This document shows, piece after piece, positions 45,088 through 64,000 of a stretch of DNA of 64,000 nt (within the stretch, counting starts at the first letter, position 1; the number at the start of each line of letters is the position of its first letter). Below the pieces are notes generated by a model. It was not told the origin of the DNA. It saw only the letters and a list, made by a program, of their open reading frames with translations, and did not search any database. The translations under genes and the position numbers were made by a program. Source of the DNA: a virus. The stretch spans positions 17,293-81,292 of the IMG/VR virus record IMGVR_UViG_3300045918_000320. The stretch is one strand, 5' to 3'.

Positions 45088-45428
45088 TGCAAACTTCCAT
45101 GGACGACTATAACTATGTATCAAAACATTTTGAAGTTGTCCGAAAAAAATATGGCACAGAAATTAACTTCACAATTAGCCCTATAGTAAACGAAAATTCT
45201 CAGCCTTGTATAATTAGTTTTTATACTTTAGTTACTGATTATTTCGGGTATATGGATTTTATATCTTTAGAGGGTATAGAATTGTGGGAAATGCTTGACA
45301 AAGTAAAGGTAATGAATTATGCTCTTACTGTGATGATTCGCAAAGCATTATTTAATTATGGAATAAAGGGATTAAAAGGAGAGAGATTATCCAAAACTCC
45401 TTTATTGAGATTAATTTATGAAGTATAA
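45084..45428 (+). CDS. mini-gene family member (TPLLRLIYE)
   Basis: C-terminal motif. Confidence 0.65.
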   Translation: MMQTSMDDYNYVSKHFEVVRKKYGTEINFTISPIVNENSQPCIISFYTLVTDYFGYMDFISLEGIELWEMLDKVKVMNYALTVMIRKALFNYGIKGLKGERLSKTPLLRLIYEV

Positions 45429-45663
45429 ATTTCCCGGAGAGTATATTGAGTTACTACACGAAGAAACTGGATTAATAGAATGTCTAAATTGGTATGTAAA
45501 AAATGACGATCATCAGTTTTTACTTCTTGACAATATAAGAGATGTTAATTTACTGGCAGTATGGACAGATTTACTAGATTCTAGAATTTTAGCAGGAAAA
45601 TTGTTACCAATAATATTAGGAGAGGAATATGTATCAGAGATTTACAGAAACGCAAAAAGATAA
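45418..45663 (+). CDS. mini-gene family member (GKLLPIILG)
   Basis: motif; its Gly-Glu codons form the SD of the primase-helicase. Confidence 0.55.
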   Translation: MKYKFPGEYIELLHEETGLIECLNWYVKNDDHQFLLLDNIRDVNLLAVWTDLLDSRILAGKLLPIILGEEYVSEIYRNAKR

Positions 45664-47581: not shown

Positions 47582-47787
47582 AGACAAATGATAATAGATA
47601 TGTCTATTTTTTCACTTATAGTAATGAATCTATAGTGTCTATGTTTTTTGAATGTCAAGAGGAAGATATTAATAGTAATACTTGCTTTAAAAGAAAAGAA
47701 ATTGAAGAGCAAAGAGAGGATTACGATATCTATTTACATTATAAAGCAATACAAAGCCCTTTATTAAAAGCTATTTTGGAAGAATAA
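47578..47787 (+). CDS. mini-gene family member (SPLLKAIL)
   Basis: C-terminal motif. Confidence 0.6.
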   Translation: MKTNDNRYVYFFTYSNESIVSMFFECQEEDINSNTCFKRKEIEEQREDYDIYLHYKAIQSPLLKAILEE

Positions 47788-48008
47788 TGAAATATAAAAA
47801 AGATAAAGTTTGTAGATATAAATTTGTATATTCTAAAGATATTATACAATCTTTGCGAGACTCTATAGACATTACTGGATTTGAAAGTAGTTTAGACTTG
47901 CATTTATATAGAACTGAAGAAATTTACAAAGAAAATAATTACGAAAGTTTTATTAATCATAATGCTCTAATTGCACCTTTATTTAGAATTATTTTAGGAG
48001 AAAAATGA
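47787..48008 (+). CDS. mini-gene family member (APLFRIILG)
   Basis: C-terminal motif. Confidence 0.6.
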   Translation: MKYKKDKVCRYKFVYSKDIIQSLRDSIDITGFESSLDLHLYRTEEIYKENNYESFINHNALIAPLFRIILGEK

Positions 48009-48631
48009 AATTAATTAATCCTTCTGTAACTATAGAAACTGATTTAAACGGAGAGTTTATTTTAAGACATGTAGAAAAGGCTATACGTAATTGCTACAAG
48101 TCTGAGGATAAAATAGGTGAGGATAGCCATAAAAAGCTAATTAAAACTATTTTAGATAGTCACCATTACAGTACTATAGAACACTATACTATTACTGTAA
48201 GAGTAATTTGTAGTCGAGCTTGTATGGCTCAGTGGACTAGACACAGACTAATGTCTTTTAGTATTGAATCTCAGAGATACATAAATTATTCTAGAGGTAA
48301 ATTTGGCGGAGAGATTACGTTTATTCGCCCAATAGAATATTACGATTGGACTGTACAGCAACAATTTAAATTTGATATAGCTATGCAGGATTCTGAAAAA
48401 TCTTATATGGATTTGCTATCTGCAGGGCTAAAAGCTCAGGATGCCAGAAATGCTTTAAATAATGCTACTAAAACAGAAATGGTAGTTTCTGGAAATTTAA
48501 GAGTTTGGAGAGATTTACTAATAAAAAGAGTTGACAAATCAGCACAGTCTGAGATACGATATTTAGCAAAGGAACTTCTTTCGGAATTTAAAAAGGAGAT
48601 TCCTATAATTTTTGATGATATAGAGGTGTAA
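48005..48631 (+). CDS. thyX: flavin-dependent thymidylate synthase
   Basis: HYSTIEH, RHRLMSFSIESQRY, AQSEIR. Confidence 0.9.
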   Translation: MKLINPSVTIETDLNGEFILRHVEKAIRNCYKSEDKIGEDSHKKLIKTILDSHHYSTIEHYTITVRVICSRACMAQWTRHRLMSFSIESQRYINYSRGKFGGEITFIRPIEYYDWTVQQQFKFDIAMQDSEKSYMDLLSAGLKAQDARNALNNATKTEMVVSGNLRVWRDLLIKRVDKSAQSEIRYLAKELLSEFKKEIPIIFDDIEV

Positions 48632-48949
48632 ATGAAACTTTGTAAATCTTGTAATTTAATTACTTCAGATTTTGGCAAAAATAAAGCTAGAAAAGATGGA
48701 CTTAGTTTTTACTGTAGACCTTGTAACCGAAAATTAGAACAAATTAGTATCTCTAAATTATCTAATAAAAAAAATAAACAAGTAGTAGTTAGCTTTGAAA
48801 AAAACTGTCAGAATTGTAATTGGAATTTTGGCGGTAAATGCGTAGTAAAAAATCCCGGACAAATTACAGAAATAGAAAATGATAATATCTGTCATAAATT
48901 TGAAAGATTTGTGGAGAGAGAAATTGACATTGCCGAGTTACATTCATGA
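48632..48949 (+). CDS. zinc-finger protein
   Basis: CKSC..F.KN..RKDGL..YCRPC. Confidence 0.55.
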   Translation: MKLCKSCNLITSDFGKNKARKDGLSFYCRPCNRKLEQISISKLSNKKNKQVVVSFEKNCQNCNWNFGGKCVVKNPGQITEIENDNICHKFERFVEREIDIAELHS

Positions 48950-49167
48950 AAATTAAAAACTCAATACTATTGCAATTGTGGGATCTTTCTTTTTTATTAA
49001 GATGTTCAACGTATTCCGTACCTTATGCTTTGGATTATCATATGTATGTTTATGATTTTGTAGGAGATACTTATGCCTGTAGTCCTATAACTTATTTAGA
49101 AATAAAACAACTACAAAACTGTACCCTTTTAGGAATTATATATGGAAAAGAATTATCAAATAATTAA
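48946..49167 (+). CDS. mini-gene family member (CTLLGIIYG)
   Basis: motif; its Tyr-Gly codons contain the PolA ATG. Confidence 0.55.
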   Translation: MKIKNSILLQLWDLSFLLRCSTYSVPYALDYHMYVYDFVGDTYACSPITYLEIKQLQNCTLLGIIYGKELSNN

Positions 49168-51457
49168 TGCTTTAAATTTTGAAGCAGCTTTAGCAGAAAT
49201 AGAGCAGTTTGACATAATTGCATACGATACGGAAACTACAGGATTAAATGTACGTAAAGATAGGGTAATTGGATTCTCTTTTACCTGTACTCCCAATTCT
49301 GGATGGTATTTACCTTTATGGATATATGAAAAAACTACAGATAAATTAATTGAACGTGGCAATTCTGAAATGGCTATAGAGTTATTAAAAGCTTTAGCTA
49401 AAAAGAAACTTATAATGCATAATGCTAGTTTTGACGTTAGGGTAACAGCTAACTCTCTAGGTATAAATTTACTTAATGCACTTTACGCAGATACACAATT
49501 AATGATTCACACTCTCCGAGAGGAGGGGCCATTTGCATTAAAAGATAATGCAGTGCTTTTAGCAAGGGAATTAGGATTAGACAATCAGGATGCAGCTAAT
49601 CAGGAGCAATTGGAATTAGAGCAAAATGTAAAAGCTAATGGTGGAAAATGGCTGAAGTCAAATAAAGAAATGTTTAAAGCAGACTTAAATGTTTTAGCTA
49701 AATATGCTATAGCGGATACAGATATCACTTTAAGACTTTTTCAGTATCTTCAGCAGCAATTAGAAAAAGAACAGTTATTAGATTTTTTTTACAAAGACGA
49801 AGTAATGCCTCTACAGAAATATTGTACTATCAGAATGGAGCATAGACCTGTTCATTTAGATATGGTAAAATTGGAGCAATTGAATAGAGAAATTGATTTA
49901 GAAATTAAACAAATAGAAACTAATGTTGTAATTGCGTTACTAGCTACTGAGGAAGGTCAGGAATTTAGTAAGCAAAGATTGGCTGAAGAATTTCCTCCAA
50001 AAAATAGTGGAGCTTTCGCACAGGAAGTTTGTAGACTATTCGATTTGCCGATGCCTATGCTAGTTTCGGGAAAATTTCAAATTACAAAAAAGAGTTTACA
50101 ATTTCCTAAAGATTTTTATTTAGAGCCGGATAAACTCAGAGCTATAGAATTTCTAAAAGATACTGAAAACGAACTAATGACTCATGAAATTGACGAAATA
50201 CAAAAGAAACTTTTAATAGCTAAAGAAGGTACAGAACATATTATTAATATTTCTTCTAAACAGCAGCTAGGTAAAATTGTATTTGATTTAATGGGAATTA
50301 AACCTCTGAGTAAAACTGAAAAAGGTTCTCCACAGTTTAATGAAGATTTAGTAGAACATTTAGTAAAAGAATATGGATTTCTTTGGGCTAAGGAATTACG
50401 AGTTTACAATAAACTTTTAAAGATAAAAAGTAGCTATTATGAAAGATTTTTAGATGCTCAGGAAGGTGGAGTATTCTACCCTACTTTTAAACAGCATGGA
50501 ACTACTTCTGGAAGGTTTAGTTCGGATATGCAACAGTTACCAAAGCCTCTAGAGGAAGACAGTGAGGAGGAGCCGGAAGATTCTCGTATCGTAAAGCATA
50601 CAGATGCTGTTCGTACTTTATTTATTCCACCTCCGGGATTTAAATTTTTAGATGACGACTATGAATCTTTAGAGCCTAGAGTATTTGCTGACGATGCTGC
50701 AGATCAAGCTCTAATAGATATTTTTATTAAAAATTATGACATGTATTCTGTAGTAGCTATTGGAGCTGAAAAGTTAGAAGGAGTTTCTGCAGACAAAAAA
50801 GCACCAAATTATTTAAAAAATATTAATCCTAATAAAAGACAGAATGCTAAACCGTATGCTTTAGGAATTCGCTACGGAATGAAAGATTTTAAGTTACACA
50901 AAACTTTAGAAATAGAACTTACTGCGGCTCAAGAAATTATCGAGAATTATTTTAAAGCATTCCCCGGACTAAAAGCCGCTATGGATAAATATTTAAAAGA
51001 AGTAAAAACTACAGGTAAAGTTACTTCTAAGTATGGCAGAGTGCGGCATATTCCTAGAGCTAGGGAAATATACAGAAAGTTCGGGGATGATGTTTTAGAA
51101 TATAAAAATTTAAAGAACTTGGCAATTAAGCATTATACTCCAATTTCTGAATTAAAAGATATCAGAAAAGAATATAATAATTTATTAAATAATGCTTTAA
51201 ACTTCCCAATTCAGGCAGCAGGAGCTAGTATCGTAAATAGAGCTATGATTGCTATGTCTAAGAAATTTCATGAAGAGAAATTAAATGCTTGGGTATGTCT
51301 TCAAATTCACGATCAAATTGTAATAACTTGTGTAGAAAAAGATATTGACAGGGCTAAAGAAATAGTGCAAGATTGTATGGAGAATACAAATAAGCTATTA
51401 ATGCCGTTAATAGCTAAACCAGAAGTGGCTGGAAATTTAGCAGAAGGACATATTTAA
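49142..51457 (+). CDS. polA: family A DNA polymerase with 3'-5' exonuclease
   Basis: YDTETTG, HNASFD, TTSGRFSS, DYESLE, RQNAK..YG, NFPIQ, QIHDQ. Confidence 0.92.
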   Translation: MEKNYQIINALNFEAALAEIEQFDIIAYDTETTGLNVRKDRVIGFSFTCTPNSGWYLPLWIYEKTTDKLIERGNSEMAIELLKALAKKKLIMHNASFDVRVTANSLGINLLNALYADTQLMIHTLREEGPFALKDNAVLLARELGLDNQDAANQEQLELEQNVKANGGKWLKSNKEMFKADLNVLAKYAIADTDITLRLFQYLQQQLEKEQLLDFFYKDEVMPLQKYCTIRMEHRPVHLDMVKLEQLNREIDLEIKQIETNVVIALLATEEGQEFSKQRLAEEFPPKNSGAFAQEVCRLFDLPMPMLVSGKFQITKKSLQFPKDFYLEPDKLRAIEFLKDTENELMTHEIDEIQKKLLIAKEGTEHIINISSKQQLGKIVFDLMGIKPLSKTEKGSPQFNEDLVEHLVKEYGFLWAKELRVYNKLLKIKSSYYERFLDAQEGGVFYPTFKQHGTTSGRFSSDMQQLPKPLEEDSEEEPEDSRIVKHTDAVRTLFIPPPGFKFLDDDYESLEPRVFADDAADQALIDIFIKNYDMYSVVAIGAEKLEGVSADKKAPNYLKNINPNKRQNAKPYALGIRYGMKDFKLHKTLEIELTAAQEIIENYFKAFPGLKAAMDKYLKEVKTTGKVTSKYGRVRHIPRAREIYRKFGDDVLEYKNLKNLAIKHYTPISELKDIRKEYNNLLNNALNFPIQAAGASIVNRAMIAMSKKFHEEKLNAWVCLQIHDQIVITCVEKDIDRAKEIVQDCMENTNKLLMPLIAKPEVAGNLAEGHI

Positions 51458-51470
51458 TTTTAAATATAAC

Positions 51471-51500
51471 TTGACATTAGGGGCATTAGTCTGTTATAAT
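51471..51500 (+). promoter_or_regulatory. sigma70 promoter
   Basis: TTGACA-18-TATAAT. Confidence 0.65.
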
Positions 51501-51519
51501 ATATCTTGGAGGATGTATT

Positions 51520-52038
51520 ATGAAAAATTATAAAGTAGATATAAAAGGGTATGAGGGAATATATCAAATCTCCCGAGATGGAAAAGTTTTCAGTTTAAAA
51601 AATGATTTAGAGTTTAAATTATCAATAGGCACAACCGGATACTATAGAGTGAATTTAAATAATAAAGATAGAGGTAAGACTCATAAAGTTCACAGATTAG
51701 TGGCTTTGCATTTTATACCAAATCCGAATAATTATAAATGTGTCAATCATTTAGATGGGAATAAATTAAATAACGATATGTCTAACTTGGAATGGTGTTC
51801 TCATAAAAGAAATAACAATCATGCTAGAGAATTAGGATTAAACCCAATATTAAGAGGATTGGATTCTCCTTTAATAAAGTCAGTAAAAAGACATGATACT
51901 GGAGAAATATTTTTATCCTTAGATTCTGCTTGCCGAGCTTGTGGTCAATATAGAAATAGATCAGGATTATCTAACCACTTAGCAGGAAGACATCCCAAAT
52001 TTGATGGTACTACTTGGGAATTTGTAAATGAAAACTAA
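51520..52038 (+). CDS. NUMOD4-HNH homing endonuclease
   Basis: DIKGYEGIYQIS..G; VHRLVA..VNHLDGNKLNN..NLEW. Confidence 0.88.
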   Translation: MKNYKVDIKGYEGIYQISRDGKVFSLKNDLEFKLSIGTTGYYRVNLNNKDRGKTHKVHRLVALHFIPNPNNYKCVNHLDGNKLNNDMSNLEWCSHKRNNNHARELGLNPILRGLDSPLIKSVKRHDTGEIFLSLDSACRACGQYRNRSGLSNHLAGRHPKFDGTTWEFVNEN

Positions 52039-52276
52039 ACCAAAAGCTCCTAGAAGACTTAAAGTTAAACCTCCTAAAGCTATTCCTCACGGAAAAATGT
52101 ATAATAGGAAAAAACTTAAAAAGGTAGTAGTATGAAATATTTAAATGTATTATTAATAGTAATTCTTATAAATAGTTTTTATTTGATATACAAATTAAAA
52201 AAAGATATGTTTACTTTAAATCTAATAATACATACTCAAAACGATATGTTAGTAAATAAATGCGGAATCCAGTAAA

Positions 52277-52519
52277 ATGATAGCAGCTATAGGCTCTATA
52301 ATGCTTGCTCTTTGCGGTCTTCCTGAAATGATCCGAACCATTCAGGATAGGAGATGTCATGTTGGATGGCTAATGCTACTATTATGGCTATTTGGGGAAA
52401 TATTATTATTTATTTTTGCTTGCAATACAAAACAATATGTGTTATTAATTAATTATGTCGCAAATATAACTTTTGTATCTGTGATGATTTATTACAAAAT
52501 ATATGGAGATAAAAAATGA
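52277..52519 (+). CDS. PQ-loop/SemiSWEET-like 3-TM protein
   Basis: GSIMLALCGLPE..WLFGE..LLINYVAN. Confidence 0.65.
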   Translation: MIAAIGSIMLALCGLPEMIRTIQDRRCHVGWLMLLLWLFGEILLFIFACNTKQYVLLINYVANITFVSVMIYYKIYGDKK

Positions 52520-52941
52520 GAATTATTTTAGGATTATTACTTTCACTAAATGTTTTTGCCAGTAACACTGCTAGTATAGTTTTGCATGGAACTATTCCGG
52601 CTAAAACAGACGTTACAACTACAGTTACTTCAGTTAACCTATCTGTAGAAGCTAATGCTGTAGATACTGTAATTTCCACTCTAGGAATTAAAACTAATAG
52701 ACCTGCTACAGTATTTATTACTTCTACTAATAGTTTTAATTTAGTTAAGTCTGGATTCGCTACACAAATTCCATATACTCTAAAATTAGGCACTACAACA
52801 GTTACTGCTTCGGCTATTTCATTTCCACAGTTTACGAATACTAATAGAGATTTAAAAATTAGCTATACTGGAGTAGATGGCTACTTAATGGATGCTGGAG
52901 ATTATACAGATACTTTAACCGTAACTGTTACAGCTCTTTAG
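52516..52941 (+). CDS. secreted pilin-like (Csu/spore coat U-like) beta-sandwich protein
   Basis: signal peptide; IPYTL; C-terminal AGDYTDTLTVTVTA. Confidence 0.6.
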   Translation: MRIILGLLLSLNVFASNTASIVLHGTIPAKTDVTTTVTSVNLSVEANAVDTVISTLGIKTNRPATVFITSTNSFNLVKSGFATQIPYTLKLGTTTVTASAISFPQFTNTNRDLKISYTGVDGYLMDAGDYTDTLTVTVTAL

Positions 52942-54107
52942 GAGAGTTTTATGGATAAGTGGTATTTTATAGAAAATAAATATAATCCTAGATTTAATTT
53001 TATTTTATTAGAATCGGAAGGTAAGAGTTATTATTCTAGCATATATGCTAGTGGTTCAGATTGCATAGCTACTGAGTGGGAGCGTATGAATTTACAATAT
53101 TACTTTACTAATAGTAATTATTATAATGTTACCGAATTAGGAAGTTTGGAGCCTGATAGACCTATGACTAGAGAAGATGCTAAAGCTTTCCACCCTGATG
53201 CAGAAGTAGTTGGGGATGGGAGCACTTGGCAAATAGTAGTACCTTTGCCGGAAAAAGAATCTACTGGACTAAATTTTGATGTAGAGTTACTTTTTGGAAT
53301 TTGTTTATTTATTAATATTGTAATTACTATTTACTTGACAATTATTAGATTTCTGATATAACCTTTTTAGGAGAATTAAATGAAAGTACAAGAATTAATT
53401 AATTTGTTACAAAAATTTGACGTAAACCATACTGTCAGATTAAAAATAGGATCTGAATACAAAAATATAGATGATGTAATTACTGGTAGATTTGTAAATA
53501 CTGTAGAATTACTAAATTTTAATGATATTAGTATTGAGCAAGCTGAAGGTGAAACAATGTCTACTATGCTTGCCAAAAATGAAATATCTCCAATTAGAGA
53601 AAAATTAATTGTGAGAGCAATTGGTCAGGAAAGATTTGACGAAATTAGAAATGAAATTACTACGTTTTTTTCTAAACAAAATTCTGAAGAAGAATCTGTA
53701 CCTGAAGTTACTCTTGTAGAGGATATAGAATTTGACGAAGAAGCTGATAGATTATCAGTTGAAAAAGCTAGAGCTGAAATACTTGTAGAAAAGCTATATA
53801 AAGGTGAGGAATTGTCAGATGCTCAGTTAGAAGCTGTATCTGCTGCCAAAAAACTATTAGGAAAAAAAGCTGTATCTGCAATTAAAAAAGCTGTAGAAAA
53901 AGAAGTATAGTTTGAAAGTAGAATTAGATAAAAAAATAATTGACGAGATTGTGGAAGTTTTAGCTGAAGAGTTAGAAATAAAACATTTAGGATTGGAAGA
54001 AGAGGAAGTCTTAATTAGACTTGCCTCTTTGTCTATTGCTATTTATTTAGGTTCTTTACGAAGAGATCCAGATCAGTCTACAAAAATACATTAACAGGAA
54101 GTTAAAA

Positions 54108-55037
54108 ATGGCTTTAGTAAAAGCAATGTCAAAAGCAGAAATTGAGAATTTAATTAAATACAGACAAAAAGGTGAGACTTGGGCTAGCCTTGCTAAAAAA
54201 TTTAAAGGGCATACTCCAAATGCTCTCAGAAAAACATATTATAGAAATATCCGTAAACCTGAAGTAAAGGTGTTAATTTTTGATATTGAAACTGCACCTA
54301 TGCTAGGATACATTTGGGGATTATGGGACAATAACGTAGCTTTAAACATGCTTAAATCTGATTGGTATATTTTATCTTGGGCTGCAAAATGGTTACACGA
54401 TTCTGAAGATAAAGTAATGTATGCAGATCAGAGAAATGCTAAAAATATTGAAGATGATTCTGAAATGTTAAAAGGTATTTGGAAATTATTGGATGAGGCT
54501 GATGTTGTTCTTACTCAAAATGGGATAAGCTTTGATGTCAAAAAATTAAATGCAAGATTTCTTCAACATGGATTTCCACCTCCTAGTAGCTTCAGACACA
54601 TTGATACAAAAATAATTGCTAAAGCTAAATTTGCATTTACTAGCAATAAATTAGAGTATATGACTGATAAGTTAAATGTTAAATATAAAAAATTAAAACA
54701 TGATGAATTTTCTGGATTTGAGCTTTGGAAACAGTGTTTAGCTGGTAACAAAAAAGCTTGGGAATCTATGAAAAAATATAACTGTTACGATGTTTTAGCT
54801 TTAGAAGAATTATATCTTATCTTAGCTCCTTGGGACTCTAGAATTAATTTTAATGTTTTCCGAGATGATTTAGAAACTAAATGTAATGCTTGCGGATGTA
54901 GTGAGTTTAAATCTCACGGGTACAAGTACACAAATTCTGGTAAGTTTAAAAGACTTATCTGTGAAAATTGTGGTGCGGAATTGTCAGAGAAGGCTAACCT
55001 ATTGACAAAAGATAAGAAAAAGTCTCTTAAAAAATAA
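54108..55037 (+). CDS. RNase H-like (DnaQ-type) exonuclease with HTH and Zn ribbon
   Basis: FDIETAP, QNGISFD, HIDT, SNKLEY, YNCYDV. Confidence 0.8.
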   Translation: MALVKAMSKAEIENLIKYRQKGETWASLAKKFKGHTPNALRKTYYRNIRKPEVKVLIFDIETAPMLGYIWGLWDNNVALNMLKSDWYILSWAAKWLHDSEDKVMYADQRNAKNIEDDSEMLKGIWKLLDEADVVLTQNGISFDVKKLNARFLQHGFPPPSSFRHIDTKIIAKAKFAFTSNKLEYMTDKLNVKYKKLKHDEFSGFELWKQCLAGNKKAWESMKKYNCYDVLALEELYLILAPWDSRINFNVFRDDLETKCNACGCSEFKSHGYKYTNSGKFKRLICENCGAELSEKANLLTKDKKKSLKK

Positions 55038-55753
55038 TATTTGACTTGTATCAGCTTTTCGTGTAACATAGACTTATCGGGGGATATTTTATGATACCAC
55101 AAAGTAAAATTAAAGAGATAGAAGCTAAAGAATACGGAGTTATGACAGAAGAGGAAGCTCTTCTGTTAAAATACTGGAATTCGTATAAAGAATCAAATAT
55201 GTGGCATTCTATGATGCTAGGAATTACTGAAGCTCCAGACTGTCTAGAAAAAGCATTAAACTATGCTAGAAAAGGTAAAGAGAGTGTTAAAACTGCTTTA
55301 CGGATTCAAGGACAGCTTTTAATGATGTGGGCAAACAATCAGAACAAAGTATTAGAATTTAAAATAAACGAAGATAAACAAGTTATAAGAGGTATATTAG
55401 AAGACGAAACTGCTACTATACACTATTTAAAATCTCCAGAAGCTAAAGATCCTAAAAATGTAGTAGAGTTTTTAGAAAATAAAAAGATTTCTAAATATAT
55501 GGGTACAATTAGACCTTTGCAAACTAAAGAAGATTTAAAAATAGATACTGAAAAACAGTTAAGAGAGAGAAATTTAGTAATTCCTGCCGGAGCTACTGAA
55601 GAAGAAAAAATTAACATATCTCTTAAAATTCTTGACAATCTTTTTTGGCATGGGAAAATTATAGAAAAAGATTATAATGAAATGTGTAGAAAATTAATGA
55701 ATAAAAAAGCAAAAATAGCTTGATATTTAGTTTTAACTTTGGTAAGATAAATT

Positions 55754-56089
55754 ATGAGTAAGATAAAGCACATTATTTTAACTATAAAAGGGATACAATG
55801 GAAGATTTTTATACAATCTCCATCTTCGTACCGAAGAATGCATGGAAATGATAGTGATGCAATTATGTATCCATCAGATAGAGAATTATACTTTAAAAAA
55901 GATCATTTAAAGTTTGGTACTGTTTGTCACGAATTGTTACACTGTTATATTGCTTCAGCCGGTACAGCTAGTGCTGATATGCAAGCTTCTCAAATGGAAG
56001 AACATATTTGTGAGTTATTGGAAGATCATATTTTTGACTTATTAAATGATGCTAAGAGAGTTATAGATTTTATAGCAAAGGAAAAATAA
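55754..56089 (+). CDS. HExxH mini-metallopeptidase-like protein
   Basis: TVCHELLH..EE. Confidence 0.6.
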   Translation: MSKIKHIILTIKGIQWKIFIQSPSSYRRMHGNDSDAIMYPSDRELYFKKDHLKFGTVCHELLHCYIASAGTASADMQASQMEEHICELLEDHIFDLLNDAKRVIDFIAKEK

Positions 56090-56733
56090 TGTTAATTGGA
56101 ATATCGGGAATTAAAAGAAGTGGAAAAGATACAATAGCTAATGTTTTAATAAAAGACTTTGGCTTTAAGAAAATAGCTTTTGCCGATAAATTAAAAGATA
56201 TCTGTGCTAGAGTATTCGATTTACCTGTATCTGTGTTTCATAGAGATGATTTTAAAGATATGGTGTTTGAAGCACCAGTAATTATAGATGTTGAGCACAT
56301 TAAGAATCTGGTTACTTTGCTAGAGGAGTATACTAGTATCCCAAATGATGCCTACAATGCGTTAATGTCTACAGGATGTAGCAAAACGCTTTATTCACCG
56401 AGAGAAATCTTACAATTCGTAGGGACGGATTTATGCCGAAACTGCGTCAATGATTCGATTTGGCTCGACATCTTTAATTCTATAGTAAAAAATACTGAAG
56501 GTCATGTTGTTGTTTCAGATGCTAGATTTACTAATGAAAGAAATTTAATTAAAAGTTTAGGCGGAACAAATATTCTTGTATCACGTTCTAATTTAAATAA
56601 TAAAGATTCTCACGCTTCTGAAAATGATTTAGGGGATGAGTCTAGTTACGATGTTCATGTAAAAAATGACACTACTAAGGAAAAACTAGAGCATGATATT
56701 CAAATGTGGTATACACTTAGAACAGCTAGATGA
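56089..56733 (+). CDS. deoxynucleoside monophosphate kinase
   Basis: GIKRSGKDT, FADKLK, PREILQFVGTD, DARFTNE, HASE. Confidence 0.88.
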   Translation: MLIGISGIKRSGKDTIANVLIKDFGFKKIAFADKLKDICARVFDLPVSVFHRDDFKDMVFEAPVIIDVEHIKNLVTLLEEYTSIPNDAYNALMSTGCSKTLYSPREILQFVGTDLCRNCVNDSIWLDIFNSIVKNTEGHVVVSDARFTNERNLIKSLGGTNILVSRSNLNNKDSHASENDLGDESSYDVHVKNDTTKEKLEHDIQMWYTLRTAR

Positions 56734-56942
56734 AATTAAAACCTGCAGATCACGTTGCTAGTAATATTTTAGGATTTCCTCAAATTAAATTTTATAGAGA
56801 GCAGTTAAAAAAGTATCCTCTAAAAGGTTCTAAAGTAATTTATTTGCAATATAGGAATTTAATAAGACCTAGCGTATACGATAATAATATTAATTTAAAA
56901 ATGCTGGAAAGCGAATTAATTAAAATATTGGTGGGATTTTGA
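56730..56942 (+). CDS. mini-gene family member (SELIKILVG)
   Basis: MKLKPAD N-terminus, degenerate C-terminal motif. Confidence 0.5.
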   Translation: MKLKPADHVASNILGFPQIKFYREQLKKYPLKGSKVIYLQYRNLIRPSVYDNNINLKMLESELIKILVGF

Positions 56943-57200
56943 AACATAGAAAATTAAAAGAAGGTGATTGGGCTTGGTGCTTATCTCCAGAAGCTACTAA
57001 TATATTATATCATGACGATATAGATACTGCCATGGATTCTACCAGTATGCGATCAAGAGACTTGATGACTACTTGTCAAGAACATAATCAATATAATGAA
57101 ATAGAAGATCCAGATGATTGGTGGGGAATATTTAGTTAAAGTTGATATATTTAAGTCACCATTAATTCACCTAATAGCAGGATATAAAATTGAAGGGTAA
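56939..57200 (+). pseudogene. frameshifted mini-gene family member
   Basis: KLKEGD N-terminus; removing one G from GGGG at 57123-57126 restores ..VDIFKSPLIHLIAG. Confidence 0.55.
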
Positions 57201-57495
57201 TAAAAAATCTAAAAGTGAAGTCGAATACTGGAGAGGAAAATACAAGGAATTATTAAGTGAAAATAAAAGGTTAAAGAAAGATTTAAAAAGATTAAAAAAT
57301 GTAGATTACGAATTTGAAGAGTTTAAAGACGCATTTGAAGATTTTTCAGAAGAAAAAGTAACAAAACGAAAAGAAAACTTGTGTCAAAACTGTATGCGTG
57401 GTAAACTAGTTTCCGTAGATATTCCGGGAAACAGAGTAGTTAGATTATGTAAAATATGCGGTAATAGGGAAACAAAAAGTGAAGATGGGATTTAA
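57190..57495 (+). CDS. coiled-coil plus zinc-ribbon protein
   Basis: ENKRLKKDLKRL; CQNC..CKIC. Confidence 0.6.
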   Translation: MKGNKKSKSEVEYWRGKYKELLSENKRLKKDLKRLKNVDYEFEEFKDAFEDFSEEKVTKRKENLCQNCMRGKLVSVDIPGNRVVRLCKICGNRETKSEDGI

Positions 57496-57588
57496 ACGAA
57501 AAGAACAAAATCATTTCGGCTGTTGGTTACGAATATATAAATCTCCGCTAATGTGTATAATTTATAATAGGGAAACAAAAAGTGAAGA
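57462..57588 (+). repeat. 24-bp direct repeat flanking a mini-gene
   Basis: TAATAGGGAAACAAAAAGTGAAGA at 57462-57485 and 57565-57588. Confidence 0.85.
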
Positions 57589-57595
57589 GATCTAA
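57485..57595 (+). CDS. mini-gene family member, 36 aa (SPLMCIIY), not in ORF track
   Basis: MGFKRKEQNHFGCWLRIYKSPLMCIIYNRETKSEEI. Confidence 0.5.
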   Translation: MGFKRKEQNHFGCWLRIYKSPLMCIIYNRETKSEEI

Positions 57596-57818
57596 TTACG
57601 ATTATGTATTTGGAGTTGGCGGAGAACATTGGGATATGAGCCACTGTATTGAAGAATTATTCTATAATAAGTATAATAACAATTATTTTTATATAGCAAC
57701 TGAGCGTAATAGTCTAGACGAATTAAATTATATAAAAGAAGCTACTTGGAATTCTCCATTAATAAATATAATTTACGATTTAAAAGATAAGAGAGCTTTA
57801 CGTGATACACAAAAATAG
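57582..57818 (+). CDS. mini-gene family member (SPLINIIY)
   Basis: motif near C-terminus. Confidence 0.6.
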   Translation: MKRSNYDYVFGVGGEHWDMSHCIEELFYNKYNNNYFYIATERNSLDELNYIKEATWNSPLINIIYDLKDKRALRDTQK

Positions 57819-58347
57819 CATTGTATACAAAAAAGTTAAATCTAGAACTTATGAAATGATTTTAGCTAAAGATATTGAAGCTGGAATGATTTTACGTGGA
57901 TATGACATTGCTACTAAACAATATCAAGAAATTAAAGTTACATCCTGTTTTAAAATTCAAAATATTCGCTGGAGATTACAATTTCTAGGAACAGATCATA
58001 TTTTTATCTCACCTGACACTTTTTTATTGACAACTAATGGTTTTTGGTGTACTAAAGACTTAGCAGATTATACTGCTTTTAAATTAATAAAAAAAGATAT
58101 GACTATACACCATGGATCTAATACAGTTACTCCAAAAGTTCATATGAAAATTATGGAATCTCCAGATTTCTTTTACGATATTCGTACAGAATCTGAGTTA
58201 CCAGTTTTAGTAGATGGTTTTTTAGTATATTTTAAATGTTCGGAGACAAATAAATATGGATTCCAAAAAGAAAGCGACAGTGATCAGCCTATTACGCAGA
58301 GCTTGGATGAGAAGCAAAGAACGATCAGAGTGCCTGAAGAGAGCTAA
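57802..58347 (+). CDS. standalone Hint-like domain protein, catalytic residues apparently absent
   Basis: KDIEAGM.L.GYD, ISPDTFLLTTNG.W..KDL, FYDIRTE..VDGFLV resemble Hint blocks. Confidence 0.55.
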   Translation: MIHKNSIVYKKVKSRTYEMILAKDIEAGMILRGYDIATKQYQEIKVTSCFKIQNIRWRLQFLGTDHIFISPDTFLLTTNGFWCTKDLADYTAFKLIKKDMTIHHGSNTVTPKVHMKIMESPDFFYDIRTESELPVLVDGFLVYFKCSETNKYGFQKESDSDQPITQSLDEKQRTIRVPEES

Positions 58348-58600
58348 AATTGATAGAGGACTTTACCAGTGCGAATTATGTGTAAAAGGTAAACTTACTC
58401 GCTATTCAGATATGCAAATTGACCATACTGAACCGGCAGTACCATTAACTGGCTGGGAAAGCTTTGACAGCTTTATAGAGCGTTTATTTGTACCTGTAGA
58501 GGGACTACGTGCCATTTGTAAGCCACACCATGAAGAAATAACTAAAGGTCAGACTGAAATACGAAAAACTAATAGAAAATTAAAAAAGATAAAAAAATGA
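58256..58600 (+). CDS. HNH-type endonuclease
   Basis: YQCELC..QIDHTEP..LRAICKPHH. Confidence 0.75.
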   Translation: MDSKKKATVISLLRRAWMRSKERSECLKRAKIDRGLYQCELCVKGKLTRYSDMQIDHTEPAVPLTGWESFDSFIERLFVPVEGLRAICKPHHEEITKGQTEIRKTNRKLKKIKK

Positions 58601-58779
58601 AAAGAACTAGTCATACTTCTTATTATTTTTTCGACCATCCTTCTGATATTATTCCGGTAATTCGCAAACTAGATTCTTATAAGAATGTGACTAGACGCTT
58701 AGGTGGATGGGCATATTACATAAAAGATATTGCTATTAACGCTCCTTTACTTCAGGAGATTTTTAAAGTTGAAAGCTAA
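58597..58779 (+). CDS. mini-gene family member (APLLQEIF)
   Basis: C-terminal motif. Confidence 0.6.
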   Translation: MKRTSHTSYYFFDHPSDIIPVIRKLDSYKNVTRRLGGWAYYIKDIAINAPLLQEIFKVES

Positions 58780-58963
58780 AGATACAAAAAAATATTGTCA
58801 AGTGTGTGAATTTGACGATTTACAATATTGGACAAATTACGATGAATTGGAAGGCTCCACTTACCAGCACCATTTAGCACAATCTGATTTCGAAACTGTT
58901 ATTTTAGATATAGATATTTTTAAAAGCATAATGCTAAAACTAATTTTTAGAGGTATAAAATGA
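58769..58963 (+). CDS. mini-gene family member (SIMLKLIF)
   Basis: TTG start after AGGAG inside the previous member's motif. Confidence 0.55.
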   Translation: MKAKDTKKYCQVCEFDDLQYWTNYDELEGSTYQHHLAQSDFETVILDIDIFKSIMLKLIFRGIK

Positions 58964-59235
58964 ATTTAGAATCGATTCTAAACAAAGTTAAAGATTTCTC
59001 AGGTATTGACTTTATTTTACCAAAAGATCCAGTAACTGGTAAAAGATCTGTTACTCTTTTATTTACTTTAGTTAGCTTTTTATTCTGTATCCTCGCCTCT
59101 AGTCTATTCGCTTACGGAAAGATTAAAAATACAGGTGATTTTAAAGAAATATTTTACGCTTCACTTGCTACTTATTTAGGTAGAAGAATTACTGGCAGTA
59201 AAGGTGAGGTAATAGAAAATGAAAATGCTAAGTAG
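58960..59235 (+). CDS. small membrane protein (holin-like)
   Basis: DPVTGKRSVT then TM helix, YLGRR. Confidence 0.45.
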   Translation: MNLESILNKVKDFSGIDFILPKDPVTGKRSVTLLFTLVSFLFCILASSLFAYGKIKNTGDFKEIFYASLATYLGRRITGSKGEVIENENAK

Positions 59236-59725
59236 AGTATTATTTCTATTTATTTTAGCTTCTGTAATTCAGTGTAGCAGTATTGTTAGATATAGATTTG
59301 GCGAAAAGCCTAGTCCTAAATTAGACGAGTATTTAGCTATGTTTCACGAAGAAATGGATAAACGAGATGTACATTTAGATTACAGAAATATTAGCCTTAG
59401 ATTTACTAATAAATTATCTCATGATAACTATGTTGCCGTATCTTATCCTTTTGTTAAATATCGTTTTGTAGACGTTCTGAGGGGTTATTTTGACCATGCT
59501 CCAGCCGAGGAGAGGGAAGCTATAGTAGTACACGAATTAGGGCATACATTTGGTTTAAAGCATTTAGACGATATGCAATTTTTGTATCCTTTTGCTAAGT
59601 TTTGCCCAATTTCTGTAATGCATTCCTATAGTAATTTGCAAGGATGTTATTTTTCTCAAAGAGAGCAATATTTTAACGAATTAGCTTTTAGAATAAAAAA
59701 ACTTGACGGATCTATAGAAATTTGA
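59219..59725 (+). CDS. exported matrixin-like Zn metalloprotease
   Basis: signal peptide; HELGHTFGLKH; SVM Met-turn. Confidence 0.75.
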   Translation: MKMLSRVLFLFILASVIQCSSIVRYRFGEKPSPKLDEYLAMFHEEMDKRDVHLDYRNISLRFTNKLSHDNYVAVSYPFVKYRFVDVLRGYFDHAPAEEREAIVVHELGHTFGLKHLDDMQFLYPFAKFCPISVMHSYSNLQGCYFSQREQYFNELAFRIKKLDGSIEI

Positions 59726-59768
59726 TATACTATTGTTTTAGGCGGATAAACCGCTAATAGGAGATTTA

Positions 59769-60542
59769 ATGAAACGCATTTTATTATTAACATTAGCTTT
59801 TTTAGCATTAAATATAGGTGCTAAAACTATTACATTAACTAGTCAGAATACTATGTCATTATCAGGGCCAGTGGACGGTCAGTCTATGACAGGTTTAATG
59901 ACAAAATTACAAGAACTAAATAAAATAGAAACTACAGAGCCTATTTATTTAGTAATTAATTCTCCGGGCGGAAGTATTTATGATGGATTTGACTTTATCA
60001 GATTTGCTCAAACTTCGAAAAGAAAAATTAATACAGTGACAGTATTTGCTGCTAGTATGGCTTTTCAAATTGTAGAATCTTTAGGTGATAGATACGTTAC
60101 TAGCTATTCATCTTTAATGTCACATAAAGCTAAAGGTGGATTTGATGGTGAATTTCCGGGACAAGTAGATTCTCGTTATGCTCACATTTTATCTCATATT
60201 ATTGAACAGGATACTGAAGTAATAAAAAGAACTAATGGTAAACAAACTTTGGAATCTTATGCTAAATTAATTCAAAATGAATATTGGGCAAATGCTAATA
60301 AAGCAATTAAGGATGGATTTGCAGATGAGCAAGTTGCAGTATCTTGCGATAAATCTTTAGAAGGTACAAATTCAATACTAGTTAATTTAGGATTTGCTTC
60401 AGCTAATGTTGAATTCTCAAATTGTCCTTTGGTAATTTACCCTATCTCAATTAGAGGTGCTAACGGAAATAGAATTGTAGACGATGCAGATTTACTAAAA
60501 GCTTATAATAAACTTTTTGAACTAAAAAACTTTAAATTTTAG
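59769..60542 (+). CDS. ClpP/S14-like serine protease with signal peptide
   Basis: IYLVINSPGGS, AASMA, LMSH, AIKDGFAD. Confidence 0.8.
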   Translation: MKRILLLTLAFLALNIGAKTITLTSQNTMSLSGPVDGQSMTGLMTKLQELNKIETTEPIYLVINSPGGSIYDGFDFIRFAQTSKRKINTVTVFAASMAFQIVESLGDRYVTSYSSLMSHKAKGGFDGEFPGQVDSRYAHILSHIIEQDTEVIKRTNGKQTLESYAKLIQNEYWANANKAIKDGFADEQVAVSCDKSLEGTNSILVNLGFASANVEFSNCPLVIYPISIRGANGNRIVDDADLLKAYNKLFELKNFKF

Positions 60543-60545
60543 GAG

Positions 60546-60569
60546 AAGGAGCTTCGGCTCCTTTTTTTT
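60546..60569 (+). terminator. intrinsic terminator
   Basis: AAGGAGC-TTCG-GCTCCTT plus T-run. Confidence 0.85.
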
Positions 60570-60779
60570 ATGTATAAACATTACAAATTAATAGAAGGTG
60601 ATTATATAAACTGGATTATGCCAGATGAATATCAGTATTCTTTAAGAGCGGATGTATTAAGTGAAGCTTGGGATACTAGATACGAAATATATTATAATGA
60701 TTCGGATGGAGATCCTCTAATTAAAAATAATATGATGAAAGGTAAACTTTTAAGGATAATTTATGGAAACGAAAACTAA
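60570..60779 (+). CDS. mini-gene family member (GKLLRIIYG)
   Basis: motif; alignable over full length with 62030..62230. Confidence 0.65.
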   Translation: MYKHYKLIEGDYINWIMPDEYQYSLRADVLSEAWDTRYEIYYNDSDGDPLIKNNMMKGKLLRIIYGNEN

Positions 60780-61209
60780 AATAATTATAGTAATTGTAGC
60801 AATAGCTTTAGGATTTGGAGCTGGATATTTTGCTAAACCCTCGTCCGTTAGGACGATCACCGTGGAAAAAATAATAAAAGAACAGTCTAAAGCTGAAGTA
60901 CAAACAAGAATTATTTATAAAGAAAAAACTGTAAAGCCTGATGGAACAGTTACAGAAATTGAAAAAACAGATAATAGTAATTCTAGTACAGATATTACAA
61001 AAATTAATAATGAAAAAAGTACTAGCCAAACTATAAAAAATGATATAGGATTAAATATATCAGCTTTAGCAATAGCTAATAGCAGTAATATTACAGGAAC
61101 TAGGGAGTATGGAATACATATTTCTAAAAGAGTGATTAGTAATATTACAGTAGGTGCTTTTGCTGATACAGAAAAGAAAATAGGAGTTAGCATTGGAATC
61201 AATTTCTGA
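60763..61209 (+). CDS. membrane-anchored protein (possibly spanin-like)
   Basis: N-terminal TM, C-terminal beta strands ending in Phe. Confidence 0.45.
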   Translation: METKTKIIIVIVAIALGFGAGYFAKPSSVRTITVEKIIKEQSKAEVQTRIIYKEKTVKPDGTVTEIEKTDNSNSSTDITKINNEKSTSQTIKNDIGLNISALAIANSSNITGTREYGIHISKRVISNITVGAFADTEKKIGVSIGINF

Positions 61210-61861
61210 GTTATTTAAACATAAATATAGAATATTGCTTTATTTAGATCATAATCCAGAACCTATTCTCGGAGTTAAGTATTTATGTATTAGGGGAATA
61301 GACGGAGATTTAGTTTTTGAAAAACGTAAATTTTACTTATTAAAAATGCCATTATTAAATTTAGTGTTTGGAGTTTAAATGTCTCACGTATACACTGTAC
61401 CTGCTGCATTTAATTGGAGTACATATTCTACTGCTTTAATGTTTGTTAGACATACAAATCCTTGTGCTGCACAGAATTTATCCTTTCTATTTACAAGAAA
61501 ATCAGAACTAAAGAGTAAACTTAAGTTAACTTCTCATAGAATAATTTATACTCAATTGGGAGAAGAATTTACTTTAGATTTGTGTTTATTAAATTACAAA
61601 TTACTAGATATTATTTTTGAAGGTTAAATGTTTATACATTATTATAAATCTATAAATTTACCTACTAGAAGATTTTTTGGAATAGAAACTTCAGAAGATA
61701 TTAAAAATTTAATATTATGGAGTACTAAGGAAGAGTACATTAAATCTGCCGGATTTAAAGTTGATGTAAGTAATAAATTTGATAGTGATTTTAGAAATCG
61801 AATAAAAGTTCAAGTTATATTTGGAGAACTTCTACACTTAATATATTTGGGGGAAAAATGA
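61193..61861 (+). CDS. three tandem mini-gene family members (61193..61378, 61379..61627, 61628..61861)
   Basis: end in MPLLNLVFG, YKLLDIIFEG and GELLHLIYLG. Confidence 0.6.
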
Positions 61862-62029
61862 AAATTGGAGATATTTTTTTAGATAAAAAATCTAATGATT
61901 TATTAATATTTTCTGGTGCTATGTGCGTAAATGAATTTAGAAAAGCTGCCTACTATTTAAAATTTGAAACTAAATATGGAGCTTTTCTTTACCTATCTTT
62001 AGATTCCGCAAAAGAAACTTTAGAGGTAA

Positions 62030-63147
62030 TTGGTGCATTATAAATTAGAAAATGCTGAAGGTATTTTTGTATATATGCCTAGTGAATTTTCTCAATTAAA
62101 AAGTGATGTTTTAGATGAGCGTTATGATAGAGATGTTACGTATTATCACAACAAAATATATGGCTCTACTTATATAATAAAATCAGAAGCTATACAATCT
62201 ACCCTTTTAAGGATAATTTATGAATTTTAAAACTAAGAATAAAATGGCATTTTTTTCTATTAGAGATTTAAAAAGATATATTATTGCTCCATACGGTAGA
62301 TTATTTACTATACGTCCCTATACTGGTTATGCCATAACTTCTGAAATACTTCAAGGACAATTACTAAAAATAATTTATGCCTAAATATCATTATAAAATT
62401 AACATGGGAAATCTTGAAGAAATAATGTACAAAATTGTATCTATAAATTCCTCTCCAAATTGTATTAAAAAAGCTATAGGATTGTCAGCAGAAAATATTG
62501 GAGTAATTTCAGACTTTAATGCTAGTTTAATTTTAAAAGCTGTATTCCGTAGTAAATTAATTAAGGCTATATATGGCTAAATTAAAATATGGAGATAAAG
62601 TGTGGGTATTTAGATACAATATGACTATTAGGTATGCCTTATTGTATCCTTATAACTACAGTATCTACGGAAAATATATGTTAGTTTCACCTTGGAATAT
62701 GGTTAAGTTTGAAGCTATTTGTTCACCTCTAATGAAGGCTATTTATGACTAGACCTAAAATAAATTACAATACTATATGTAGAGTGCTACTTTATAGTAT
62801 GCCTCTTAGAAATGGTTTTCACTATTCTCCAAGACCTTATTCTGAAAAATGGAGTCCTACTTTAATGGGAAAAAGAGTTAGAGTACTTAAAAATAAAATA
62901 TTTGCTTCTCCTTTAATTATGGAAATTTATGACTAGATACAAATTAAAATTAGGGGATAAAGTGCATAGATTATTTTGCATAGAAAATTTTAAATATGTA
63001 GATGATAATTTTTTATCTGATACTGAATTTAAAGGAGAGGATGCAGAACCAGATAGCCTTTTAATTTTTAAACATGAATTTTATAGAGCATCTTTACTGA
63101 GAGAAATATTTGGATATAAAGAAATTATACGAATTGGCAAGATCTGA
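62030..63147 (+). CDS. six tandem mini-gene family members (62030..62230, 62220..62384, 62377..62580, 62573..62752, 62745..62936, 62929..63147)
   Basis: STLLRIIY, GQLLKIIY, SKLIKAIY, SPLMKAIY, SPLIMEIY, ASLLREIF; each start after the first lies inside the previous motif. Confidence 0.7.
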
Positions 63148-63377
63148 GGATACTGAAGAAGACAGATTACAGTCAGTTTACGAATTTATTAAAAAAAATG
63201 AATTAAATAAAGGTTTTTCCCGAAAACCTATTGACTTTTTTTATTTTTGGTATACAATAGGCCATACAAATGACATTACGTTACAAGAGTTTCGTAAAGC
63301 ATTTCCACAAGGCCCTTTTGTTTATTTCAGCATGGATAAGCTGAATATTCCCAAGGAAGAATTCGGGAGAATAAATT

Positions 63378-63830
63378 TTGAATACGAGCGTCAAAAAGCA
63401 GAAAAGAAACGGAAAAAACTCCGTAACAAAAAGAAGTCTATCAAAGTATCCCTATCTAAACCCAAAAATGAATACACGGATTAGGCAAGAGTATTTAGAT
63501 GCGGATTATTTAAATAAGCTATCAGATACAGAATTAGAATTCCTAAATCAATTTTATAAAGAACATTATAATGCTAGTATAGGTAAAGCTGAAGGTGACT
63601 TGGATGGATACCTTTTAGATGTATCAAATCCTAAAGTTCGTAAAGAATTATACCGAGAAAATAATGCTAGAAATAGAGATGTATTTTCTTCTGGAAAAGC
63701 TACGGGTACTTTAATTTATTTAGATAATGTAACTTTGGAAGAAGTTATTGAGGCTAAACAGTATACTGAAGTAGATCATTTTGAAACTGCTATGTCTGAA
63801 TTAATTAAAGGCGAAGATGAAGAGGATTAA
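63378..63830 (+). CDS. hypothetical protein
   Basis: 150-aa ORF; start uncertain. Confidence 0.55.
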   Translation: MNTSVKKQKRNGKNSVTKRSLSKYPYLNPKMNTRIRQEYLDADYLNKLSDTELEFLNQFYKEHYNASIGKAEGDLDGYLLDVSNPKVRKELYRENNARNRDVFSSGKATGTLIYLDNVTLEEVIEAKQYTEVDHFETAMSELIKGEDEED

Positions 63831-64000
63831 GTTAAAAAAAGTAATATTTTGTAACTTAGATGAAGACTCTTTATTTATTATAAAATTTTACACTAGAAAT
63901 GTATATTTAGCTTTTGATATAGATGAATTAAATTTAGATATAGATAGAAAATATATTCTAGATATTAAAGTTTCAGAAGCACCATTATTACGAATATTAT
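63817..64000 (+). CDS. mini-gene family member truncated by window end (APLLRIL)
   Basis: MKRIKLKK..DIKVSEAPLLRIL open to the window edge. Confidence 0.55.
   Translation, partial: MKRIKLKKVIFCNLDEDSLFIIKFYTRNVYLAFDIDELNLDIDRKYILDIKVSEAPLLRIL

Follow-up and report, generated by a model that had tools for sequence, protein, structure and literature searches.

The DNA examined here is a stretch of 64,000 nt (the window) that comprises bases 17293–81292 of the 81,292-bp IMG/VR record IMGVR_UViG_3300045918_000320, which is classed as a virus and has a GC content of 31%. It carries 30 plus-strand open reading frames (ORFs) of 35–114 aa that share a C-terminal module, and at 12 of the 29 junctions between such an ORF and the following gene, the start codon of that gene lies at a fixed position inside the conserved motif of the module. 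Other codons of the same motif commonly supply Shine-Dalgarno (SD)-like bases at the appropriate distance upstream. The original prediction, made from the sequence of this stretch, that the motif is dual-coding and holds both the SD and the start codon of the next cistron was borne out, and the same layout recurs in diverged relatives. We favour, with a probability of roughly 0.6, the interpretation that ordinary translational coupling has become embedded in a conserved C-terminal motif and has been spread by duplication and recombination at the junctions, the proteins being a phage-lineage-specific and greatly expanded set of small accessory proteins. The coupling mechanism is textbook, and the novelty lies in the arrangement, not in the principle.

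Start codons within the motif

The shared module consists of a short alternating, strand-like stretch, the motif (S/A)PLL(R/K)xI(Y/F) and then 0–16 further residues. Members of the family are named here by the window position at which they start. Each member was anchored on the sixth motif codon (the last of the codons for L-L-R-I-I-Y, for example) and the 29 junctions to a next gene were scored. At the 12 junctions mentioned above, the next start falls at base +1 of the sixth codon. Nine of these starts are ATG, formed from TAT plus the following G (40362, 45418, 49142, 60763, 62220, 62377, 62573, 62745 and 62929), two are TTG formed from TTT plus G (40193 and 63110), and one is GTG, formed from GGT plus G inside member 61858 (62033). 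All 11 starts that had been named in the original prediction fall at this position, and 62033 makes a twelfth. The exact sequence TTA AGG ATA ATT TAT G occurs twice (nt 60750–60765 and 62207–62222), and there is a TTT G variant at nt 40180–40195. Each of the 12 proposed starts lies 1–4 codons past an in-frame stop and is the first start codon there (for 62033, a TTG is found one codon earlier), while for four of them it is the sole in-frame start within the first 30 codons. The N-terminus of DNA polymerase A (PolA, start 49142) aligns with those of six related loci from residue 3. The protein starting at 63110 aligns from residue 6 with its homologue in the related locus L004, and the N-terminus of the L004 protein is nearly equal in length.

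Packing is tight throughout. The gap to the next gene is ≤3 nt in 28 of the 29 junctions after members, compared with 21 of 34 after other genes, and an overlap of either 8 or 11 nt is found in 10/29 and 1/34 junctions, respectively. The downstream gene overlaps the upstream member in 23 of the 29 junctions. Where the downstream start lies in the sixth motif codon, the upstream stop comes 8–38 nt after it. A second class of junction, in which the SD is provided by codons that follow the motif, had also been proposed and was confirmed before genes 42363, 45629, 48005 and 61379 (SD duplex energies, dG, of −8.4, −7.3, −7.3 and −5.9). The longest run of members is an unbroken chain of ten at nt 61193–63147, the features of which are as follows.

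61193–62043, plus strand: first four members of the chain (61193, 61379, 61628, 61858), with the tail-codon SDs GGAG, GAAGG and GGGGGA; member 61858 ends in TLEVIGAL, with GAGG and the GTG of 62033
62033–62230, plus strand: member of 65 aa from GTG 62033 (TTG 62030 is possible), ending in LLRIIYEF; its closest paralogue is 60570
62204–62222, plus strand: junction CTTTTAAGGATAATTTATG with the codons for L-L-R-I-I-Y, providing AAGGA, a 6-nt spacer and the ATG of 62220; SD dG of −4.9 against a resampled mean of −0.5; 19/19 identical to nt 60747–60765
62220–62384, plus strand: member of 54 aa, ending in LLKIIYA; AAA in the motif and no SD for the next start
62377–62580, plus strand: member of 67 aa, ending in LIKAIYG; AAG GCT gives AAGG before ATG 62573
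62573–62752, plus strand: member of 59 aa, ending in LMKAIYD; AAG GCT gives AAGG before ATG 62745; alternative start GTG 62600
62745–62936, plus strand: member of 63 aa, ending in LIMEIYD; ATG GAA gives GG before ATG 62929
62929–63147, plus strand: member of 72 aa, with LLREIF and 11 further residues from an out-of-frame reading of the next gene; alternative start GTG 62962
63110–63484, plus strand: conserved non-family gene, its TTG formed from TTT plus G of the preceding motif; homologues in L004 and L010

The relatives used for comparison are metagenomic loci (L001–L011) whose PolA proteins are 56–70% identical to that of this phage. The output of a regular-expression screen of L001, L002, L007, L010 and L011 was sorted by eye for members; L003 (close to L001, and alike in gene order over this region) and spurious-looking rows were left out of the count. 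Of the 21 members judged credible, the following gene starts at +1 or +2 of the sixth codon in 16. In L001–L003 and L007, the motif ends the protein (..SPLLEELF), an F, L or V codon plus TGA giving TTGA, GTGA or ATGA, and the SD GGAG arises where GAG follows a Leu or Met codon that ends in G; GAG GAG is another source of the SD among the relatives. The corresponding codons in L010 and L011 are AGG AGT, AAG GCA and GAG GCT, with TAT+G, TTT+G or CTA+TG. The residue at position 6 tracks both the start codon and its offset: ATG at +1 is paired with Y, TTG with F, and ATG at +2 with L or V. PolA itself takes its TTG or GTG start from the F or L codon of a member plus TGA in L001–L003, and the junction between a member and 63110, at which TTT G gives TTG, is common to L010 and this phage. 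A gene outside the family is built similarly in L004, which lacks detectable members: there, a TAT GGA in the codons for the C-terminus of the ClpP-like protein (..KTYGRSL) provides the 63110 homologue with its ATG (nt 20300–20345).

Shine-Dalgarno content of the motif codons

Codon usage was determined from the 34 ORFs of the genome of ≥200 aa. In this background, AGG makes up 4.6% of Arg codons, AAG 12.1% of Lys codons, GAG 17.8% of Glu codons and TAT 72% of Tyr codons. The bases GG or GAG occur in motif codons 2–4, 6–7 nt before the start, in 11 of the 12 overlapping junctions and in 2 of the 17 others (Fisher p = 2.4e-5), a contrast that persists when two likely duplicates are removed (9/10 vs 2/17, p = 1e-4). 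One of the two non-overlapping exceptions, 58597, probably uses these bases for a TTG seven bases past the sixth codon. A G-ending codon for R, K or E stands at motif position 3 in 6 of 10 overlapping cases (0.82 expected, P = 3e-5) and in none of 8 non-overlapping ones. In addition, the synonymous codons of the upstream gene were redrawn 2000 times from genome usage and the duplex energy was summed over the junctions. The overlapping class gave −42.2, compared with −18.2 ± 4.6 after resampling, a value reached in 0/2000 draws. An SD-like bias at the synonymous positions of the motif, which had been put forward as a check on dual coding, is thus present in the resampling as well as in the codon contrasts, and statistically the codon choice in the motif was shown to be biased toward SD.

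Sequestration of the SD in a hairpin, with the CTCC of the Ser-Pro codons pairing with the GGAG of the motif and translation of the upstream gene freeing the SD, was also considered and was rejected, the folds of 18 junctions giving z values of −1.3 to +1.2. A five-pair hairpin (CTCCT..AGGAG) can be drawn at nt 58742–58758 from the Ala-Pro and Gln-Glu codons in the motif of member 58597, and was not significant against shuffled sequences (z −0.47).

The proposed mechanism follows from the layout. The motif lies at the very 3' end of genes that have no spacers, and therefore the initiation region of the next cistron falls within the codons of the motif. Its SD comes from the polar third and fourth positions (AGG, AAG GCN, GAG, GGA), and its ATG, TTG or GTG from the sixth codon and the next base. 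Ribosomes would end a member 8–38 nt past the next start and then re-initiate, aided by an SD where one is present, and through such coupling a single transcript may serve for the expression of a long chain of small ORFs together with the core gene that follows. Selection on coupling biases both the synonymous and the amino-acid choices inside the motif, as the statistics above show. The junction of about 20–25 nt (the motif end, the start and the first codons of the next gene) is also a likely substrate for unequal or ectopic recombination, which could make the tandem chains and occasionally put a copy at another gene start.

The family, its setting and the origin of its chains

From nt 38040 to the end of the window, the recognisable genes are all on the plus strand, and this replication/early module includes genes for a MoxR-like ATPase, a von Willebrand factor A (vWA) protein, a primase-helicase, ThyX, PolA and a ClpP-like protein. 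The family covers 6063 of its 25,978 bases (23%). A hidden Markov model of the last 23 residues gave significant matches to plus-strand ORFs that were confined to the region from nt 38031 through the wrap-around end. Many of the N-termini read M-K-Y-K or ..K-x-G-D.., and the paralogues can scarcely be aligned beyond their two ends; the C-terminal module is the sole conserved feature of the family. In an all-against-all BLASTP comparison, the only full-length pair in this genome was 60570/62033 (40% identity, E 4e-10). No consistent family was found in Pfam or PHROGs for 43 members (relatives included; ten were searched first), and a profile of the 43 sequences returned only five matches at E ≤ 1e-3 among 1.84 billion representatives, all of them proteins of the window. 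A single-protein search with one member returned the query alone, the best match in a PDB sequence search was not significant (E 1.4), and for one member the ESM Atlas gave no usable feature match and a model of low confidence (pLDDT 0.38).

The record itself appears to be a circular or terminally redundant assembly, as its ends overlap exactly over 127 bp (window 63874–64000 = genome 1–127). Nt 60500–63500 of the window were matched in one pond and one wetland metagenome run. PolA is ≤41% identical to that of any deposited phage, the top match being to a Flavobacterium phage, and the relatives in IMG/VR (56–70% in PolA, as above) show 65–69% identity in the ClpP-like protein. The other members and associated features of the module are listed below.

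38040–38249, plus strand: first member of the region, ending in SPLIIVIFKG; its tail AAAGGA is the SD for 38253
40012–40556, plus strand: three tandem members (40012, 40193, 40362), with the starts 40193 (TTG) and 40362 (ATG) inside the sixth motif codon
42155–42361, plus strand: member before the MoxR-like ATPase gene; its tail AAAGGAG is the SD for 42363
44699–45663, plus strand: four members between the vWA and primase-helicase genes (44699, 44803, 45084, 45418), with start 45418 inside the Tyr codon of the motif
47578–48008, plus strand: two members between the primase-helicase and ThyX genes; the tail GGAG is the SD for 48005
48946–49167, plus strand: member before PolA; GGA ATT ATA TAT G gives ATG 49142
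56730–56942, plus strand: member ending in LIKILVGF
56939–57200, plus strand: member-like ORF with the N-terminus MKHRKLKEGDW; the motif ..FKSPLIHLIAG.. is in the +1 frame (57105–57200)
57462–57588, plus strand: exact 24-bp direct repeat (57462–57485 and 57565–57588) around 79 bp (BLAST E 1.6e-7)
57582–58963, plus strand: members 57582–57818, 58597–58779 and 58769–58963, plus the non-family genes 57802 and 58256; member 58769–58963 has a probable TTG start, with GGAG from the motif codons CAG GAG
60570–60779, plus strand: single member between the ClpP-like gene and the membrane-protein gene 60763; AGG ATA ATT TAT G gives the SD and ATG 60763
63817–64000, plus strand: member that is cut by the end of the window; it reads across the 127-bp overlap and ends, with ..APLLRILFDVTE and a stop, at the start of the genome record

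Several of these have unusual features. The ORF at nt 56939–57200 ends without the motif, which is present in the +1 frame (..VKVDIFKSPLIHLIAG..), and a GGGG run lies in the area where the two frames overlap; this apparent frameshift may represent either a frameshifted pseudogene or a frameshift site. A mini-member of only 35 aa (nt 44699–44806, ..RRMKYKNKPLIYIIYGLE and a stop), with the vWA gene upstream and 44803 downstream, fuses the N-terminal MKYK of the family straight to the C-terminal motif. Member 60570 has a start that is almost without an SD (dG −1.7). A GC-rich hairpin, GGAGC-TTCG-GCTCC followed by T8, was seen by eye at nt ~60547–60569 and is absent from the output of the terminator scan; it lies directly 3' of the ClpP-like gene and abuts the ATG of 60570.

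The number of members at a given boundary between core genes varies among related phages. Before the MoxR gene there is one member here and three in L011, and between the vWA and primase genes there are four here and two in L011. PolA is preceded by one member here and in L001 and L003, by three in L002 and by none in L007, L004 and L005. After the ClpP gene, the homologues of the membrane-protein gene and of 63378 adjoin each other in L009; here, ten members and 63110 lie between them, and the boundary that holds 60570 has no member in L009. A profile search of five whole related records gave nine matches in the L010/L011 record, and none in the three 100%-complete records (L004, L005, L009) or in one that is 71% complete. 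Orthology between the members of this phage and those of L010/L011 was rejected, the matches being confined to the C-termini. In the orthologous member of L001 and L003, dN is 0.062 and dS 0.665 (dN/dS ~0.09; the PolA genes of the same pair give 0.090 and 1.069), so that at least this member is under purifying selection and encodes a real protein. A metagenome scan with the ClpP-like protein found four loci (best 84% over a fragment), none with members beside the gene. In L007 (nt 9912–12754), a homologue of gene 51520, which is HNH-like, comes after the PolA gene (nt 12217–12474), with a repeat of the last ~47 PolA residues behind it (nt 12614–12754), an arrangement that looks like a homing-endonuclease insertion which duplicated the 3' end of its target.

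Tandem duplication is visible in L002, where members m1 and m2 are 44% identical (E 7e-10) and two junctions share 20 identical nt. The paralogues 60570 and 62033, which occupy different gene boundaries, are similar at the DNA level over a stretch that opens directly behind the start codon and runs ~17 nt beyond the next ATG; their junctions are identical at 19/19 nt, with an 8-nt match after the ATG. A 43-nt repeat with 77% identity links nt 62722 and 62906. To judge from these alignments, the junction is the most similar DNA between copies. The mini-member 57479–57595 (38 aa) is little more than the motif and is bracketed by the exact 24-bp repeat, the right end of which falls in the Tyr codon of the motif. 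This repeat includes AGGGA and a GTG and thereby gives one and the same initiation region to the insert and to member 57582 downstream. Only this member, of 28 examined, has flanking repeats above the null expectation, the other 27 being within it, and target-site duplication was rejected as a general feature. Terminal inverted repeats were limited to imperfect AT-rich pairs, none of which consistently bracketed members, and the 79-bp insert has no donor copy, with matches of only 11–15 nt elsewhere in the genome and in 11 related loci. No recombinase or transposase was linked to members, and no search aimed at one was made. The contigs of the pond run, which is probably the source, are identical to the window over nt 44001–64000, and the wetland run is identical over nt 44001–51193 and 62665–64000, with no long contig between; no gain or loss of members was seen between the pond and wetland contigs, the wetland coverage being partial.

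The original prediction had gone on to treat each unit as a plug-in cassette that lands at a gene start, borrows the resident ribosome-binding site (RBS) and brings a replacement SD and start for the gene behind it, insertion then being nearly neutral. This claim stands only in part. The shared initiation region at 57479, the homology of 60570 and 62033 from start codon to beyond the next ATG at different boundaries, and the differing member numbers at the same core boundaries in this phage, L011, L001, L002 and L007 (with none detected in three complete relatives) all fit a cassette. A dedicated mobile element is nevertheless unlikely, given that 27/28 members lack a flanking repeat beyond the null, that members are not bracketed by inverted repeats, that the 79-bp insert is without a donor and that no recombinase or transposase was linked to members, although none was searched for. 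The paralogues are also old, with one full-length pair detectable and no near-identical copies (best 40%), and SD bias and tight packing are seen at non-overlapping junctions as well. The chains are accounted for by duplication and by recombination at the conserved junction, with no need for such an element, and recombination there may reasonably be inferred. It is far less probable still that what is conserved is a regulatory or recombinational signal in the nucleotide sequence and that the small ORFs are not functional proteins. That view draws on the conservation of the junction alone between most copies, the lack of Pfam or PHROGs matches for the 43 members and the poor Atlas model; against it stand the dN/dS of ~0.09 in the one ortholog pair, the varied codons used for Leu, Ile and Met at motif positions 1–2, the 30 open frames of 35–114 codons that tile without gaps in a genome of 31% GC, the N-terminal K-x-G-D common to relatives, and the lack of RNA structure at the 18 junctions.

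A more prosaic account is generic compaction, in which any gene would hold the next SD in its final codons and starts such as TAT+G and TTT+G arise easily in a packed, AT-rich operon (TAT being the predominant Tyr codon) and are inherited by duplication, without selection on the motif. Several results that weigh against the coupling interpretation point in this direction. In 16 non-overlapping junctions the SD bias is equally significant (−91.1 vs −66.7 ± 6.0, 0/2000), and genes behind a family member and genes behind a non-family gene have similar mean SD energies (−4.7 vs −4.9; random positions, −1.7). As the bias is similar at the 3' ends of other genes, much of the effect is generic in this phage, and the family-specific part is its placement inside a conserved motif at a fixed register. 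The non-family ClpP-like gene of L004 likewise makes the next ATG from TAT GGA. Other results limit the coupling interpretation itself. The SDs of the overlapping class are modest (mean ~−3.5 kcal/mol) and weaker than average; start 62377 has none (dG +2.0), and those at 40362, 45418, 62573 and 63110 are weak (−2.7 to −2.9). The anti-SD used was a generic motif, which may differ from that of the host. The junctions are not independent, and when duplicates are dropped the position-3 contrast falls to 4/8 vs 0/8 (p = 0.08), with the codons at that position staying above background (P = 0.002). All of the start codons are predictions, and for 62573 and 62929 there is a stronger SD (−6.4) at in-frame GTGs that lie 9 and 11 codons further downstream; the overlapping ATGs are favoured, not proven, because the K-x-G-D kept in relatives sits upstream of these GTGs. 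Finally, junction recombination was deduced from similarity only, and no clean gain or loss of a member was seen in close relatives, no near relative having been found. Compaction by itself is still an improbable explanation. The next start occupies a fixed motif codon in 12/29 junctions here, and is at +1/+2 for 16/21 members in relatives, despite near-total divergence of the proteins; the 8- and 11-nt overlaps are largely restricted to junctions after members (10/29 vs 1/34); and the SD-like motif codons follow the overlap class (11/12 vs 2/17). Coupling embedded in the motif is therefore the interpretation that we retain.

Comparison with known systems and implications

As in other translationally coupled cistrons, a start lies inside the upstream ORF, an SD-like run is found 6–7 nt upstream in coding sequence, and synonymous codons are constrained. 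Unlike the usual cases, the initiation region here sits in one conserved protein motif of ~30 paralogues and their relatives and keeps a constant register with it (the sixth codon), the overlaps are 8–38 nt rather than 1 or 4 nt, and position 6 is occupied by Y, F, G, L or V according to which start codon is used. In some eukaryotic RNA viruses, the termination upstream ribosome-binding site (TURBS), a motif in the upstream ORF, pairs with 18S rRNA and holds the ribosome near an overlapping stop/start. The likeness to TURBS is an analogy of mechanism only, as that system is eukaryotic, depends on 18S rRNA and has no protein-motif constraint. The internal proteins of T4 share a capsid-targeting sequence, and large DNA viruses have multigene-family 'accordions'. 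In both of these, as here, divergent small proteins share a short terminal peptide or families expand in tandem in variable regions; here, the shared peptide is C-terminal and nothing links it to packaging or to host-range arms races. Members also differ from phage morons in having no promoter or terminator of their own and in abutting or overlapping their neighbours, and from transposons or miniature inverted-repeat transposable elements in lacking a target-site duplication at each copy (1/28) and consistent terminal inverted repeats. Operon context can make synonymous changes matter, as outlined for ccdAB (PMC9555053), and gene overlaps are described as generally short (PMC2716372). A limited full-text search of the literature found no description of a phage paralogue family in which a protein motif keeps a fixed register with the start of the following gene; a search of this size is only weak evidence that none exists.

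The nearest evolutionary analogue is the PeSL of T4-type phages, in an analogy that does not imply membership. As summarised by Arbiol et al. (2010, PMC2839356), these repeated promoter-terminator stem-loop cassettes border small non-essential ORFs between core genes, and motif-to-motif recombination was proposed to drive insertion, deletion and replacement. Common to both systems are short conserved motifs, repeated at the edges of small ORFs that cluster between core genes. Going by that account, PeSL are intergenic and act on transcription, whereas the element here is coding sequence plus RBS and start and would act on translation. Promoter-like sites were not enriched (44 found vs 45.8 ± 7.3 in shuffles), a terminator scan found none on the plus strand within nt 61193–63484, and the junctions are without RNA structure. 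It is possible, although we hold this only tentatively, that the ~25-nt junction is the coding-sequence counterpart of the PeSL linkers, recombination between junctions duplicating, deleting and moving whole small ORFs between gene starts. Each cistron would then stay in frame and coupled, and accessory genes could be added before essential genes at almost no cost. The mini-members 57479 (38 aa) and 44699 (35 aa) would be footprints or newborn products of the process, and the residues at motif positions 3, 4 and 6 would owe their identity in part to the needs of the ribosome rather than to those of the protein.

The arrangement indicates that the initiation signals of a neighbouring gene can co-determine the choice of codons and amino acids in a protein motif, and can do so family-wide and across diverged phages. 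For genome annotation, it explains why several of these small genes are overlooked or annotated with incorrect starts. For phage evolution, it offers a concrete route by which accessory ORFs may build up in essential operons without promoters, terminators or spacers and, if recombination at the junctions does occur, it would represent a translational analogue of the promoter-terminator linkers of T4-type phages.

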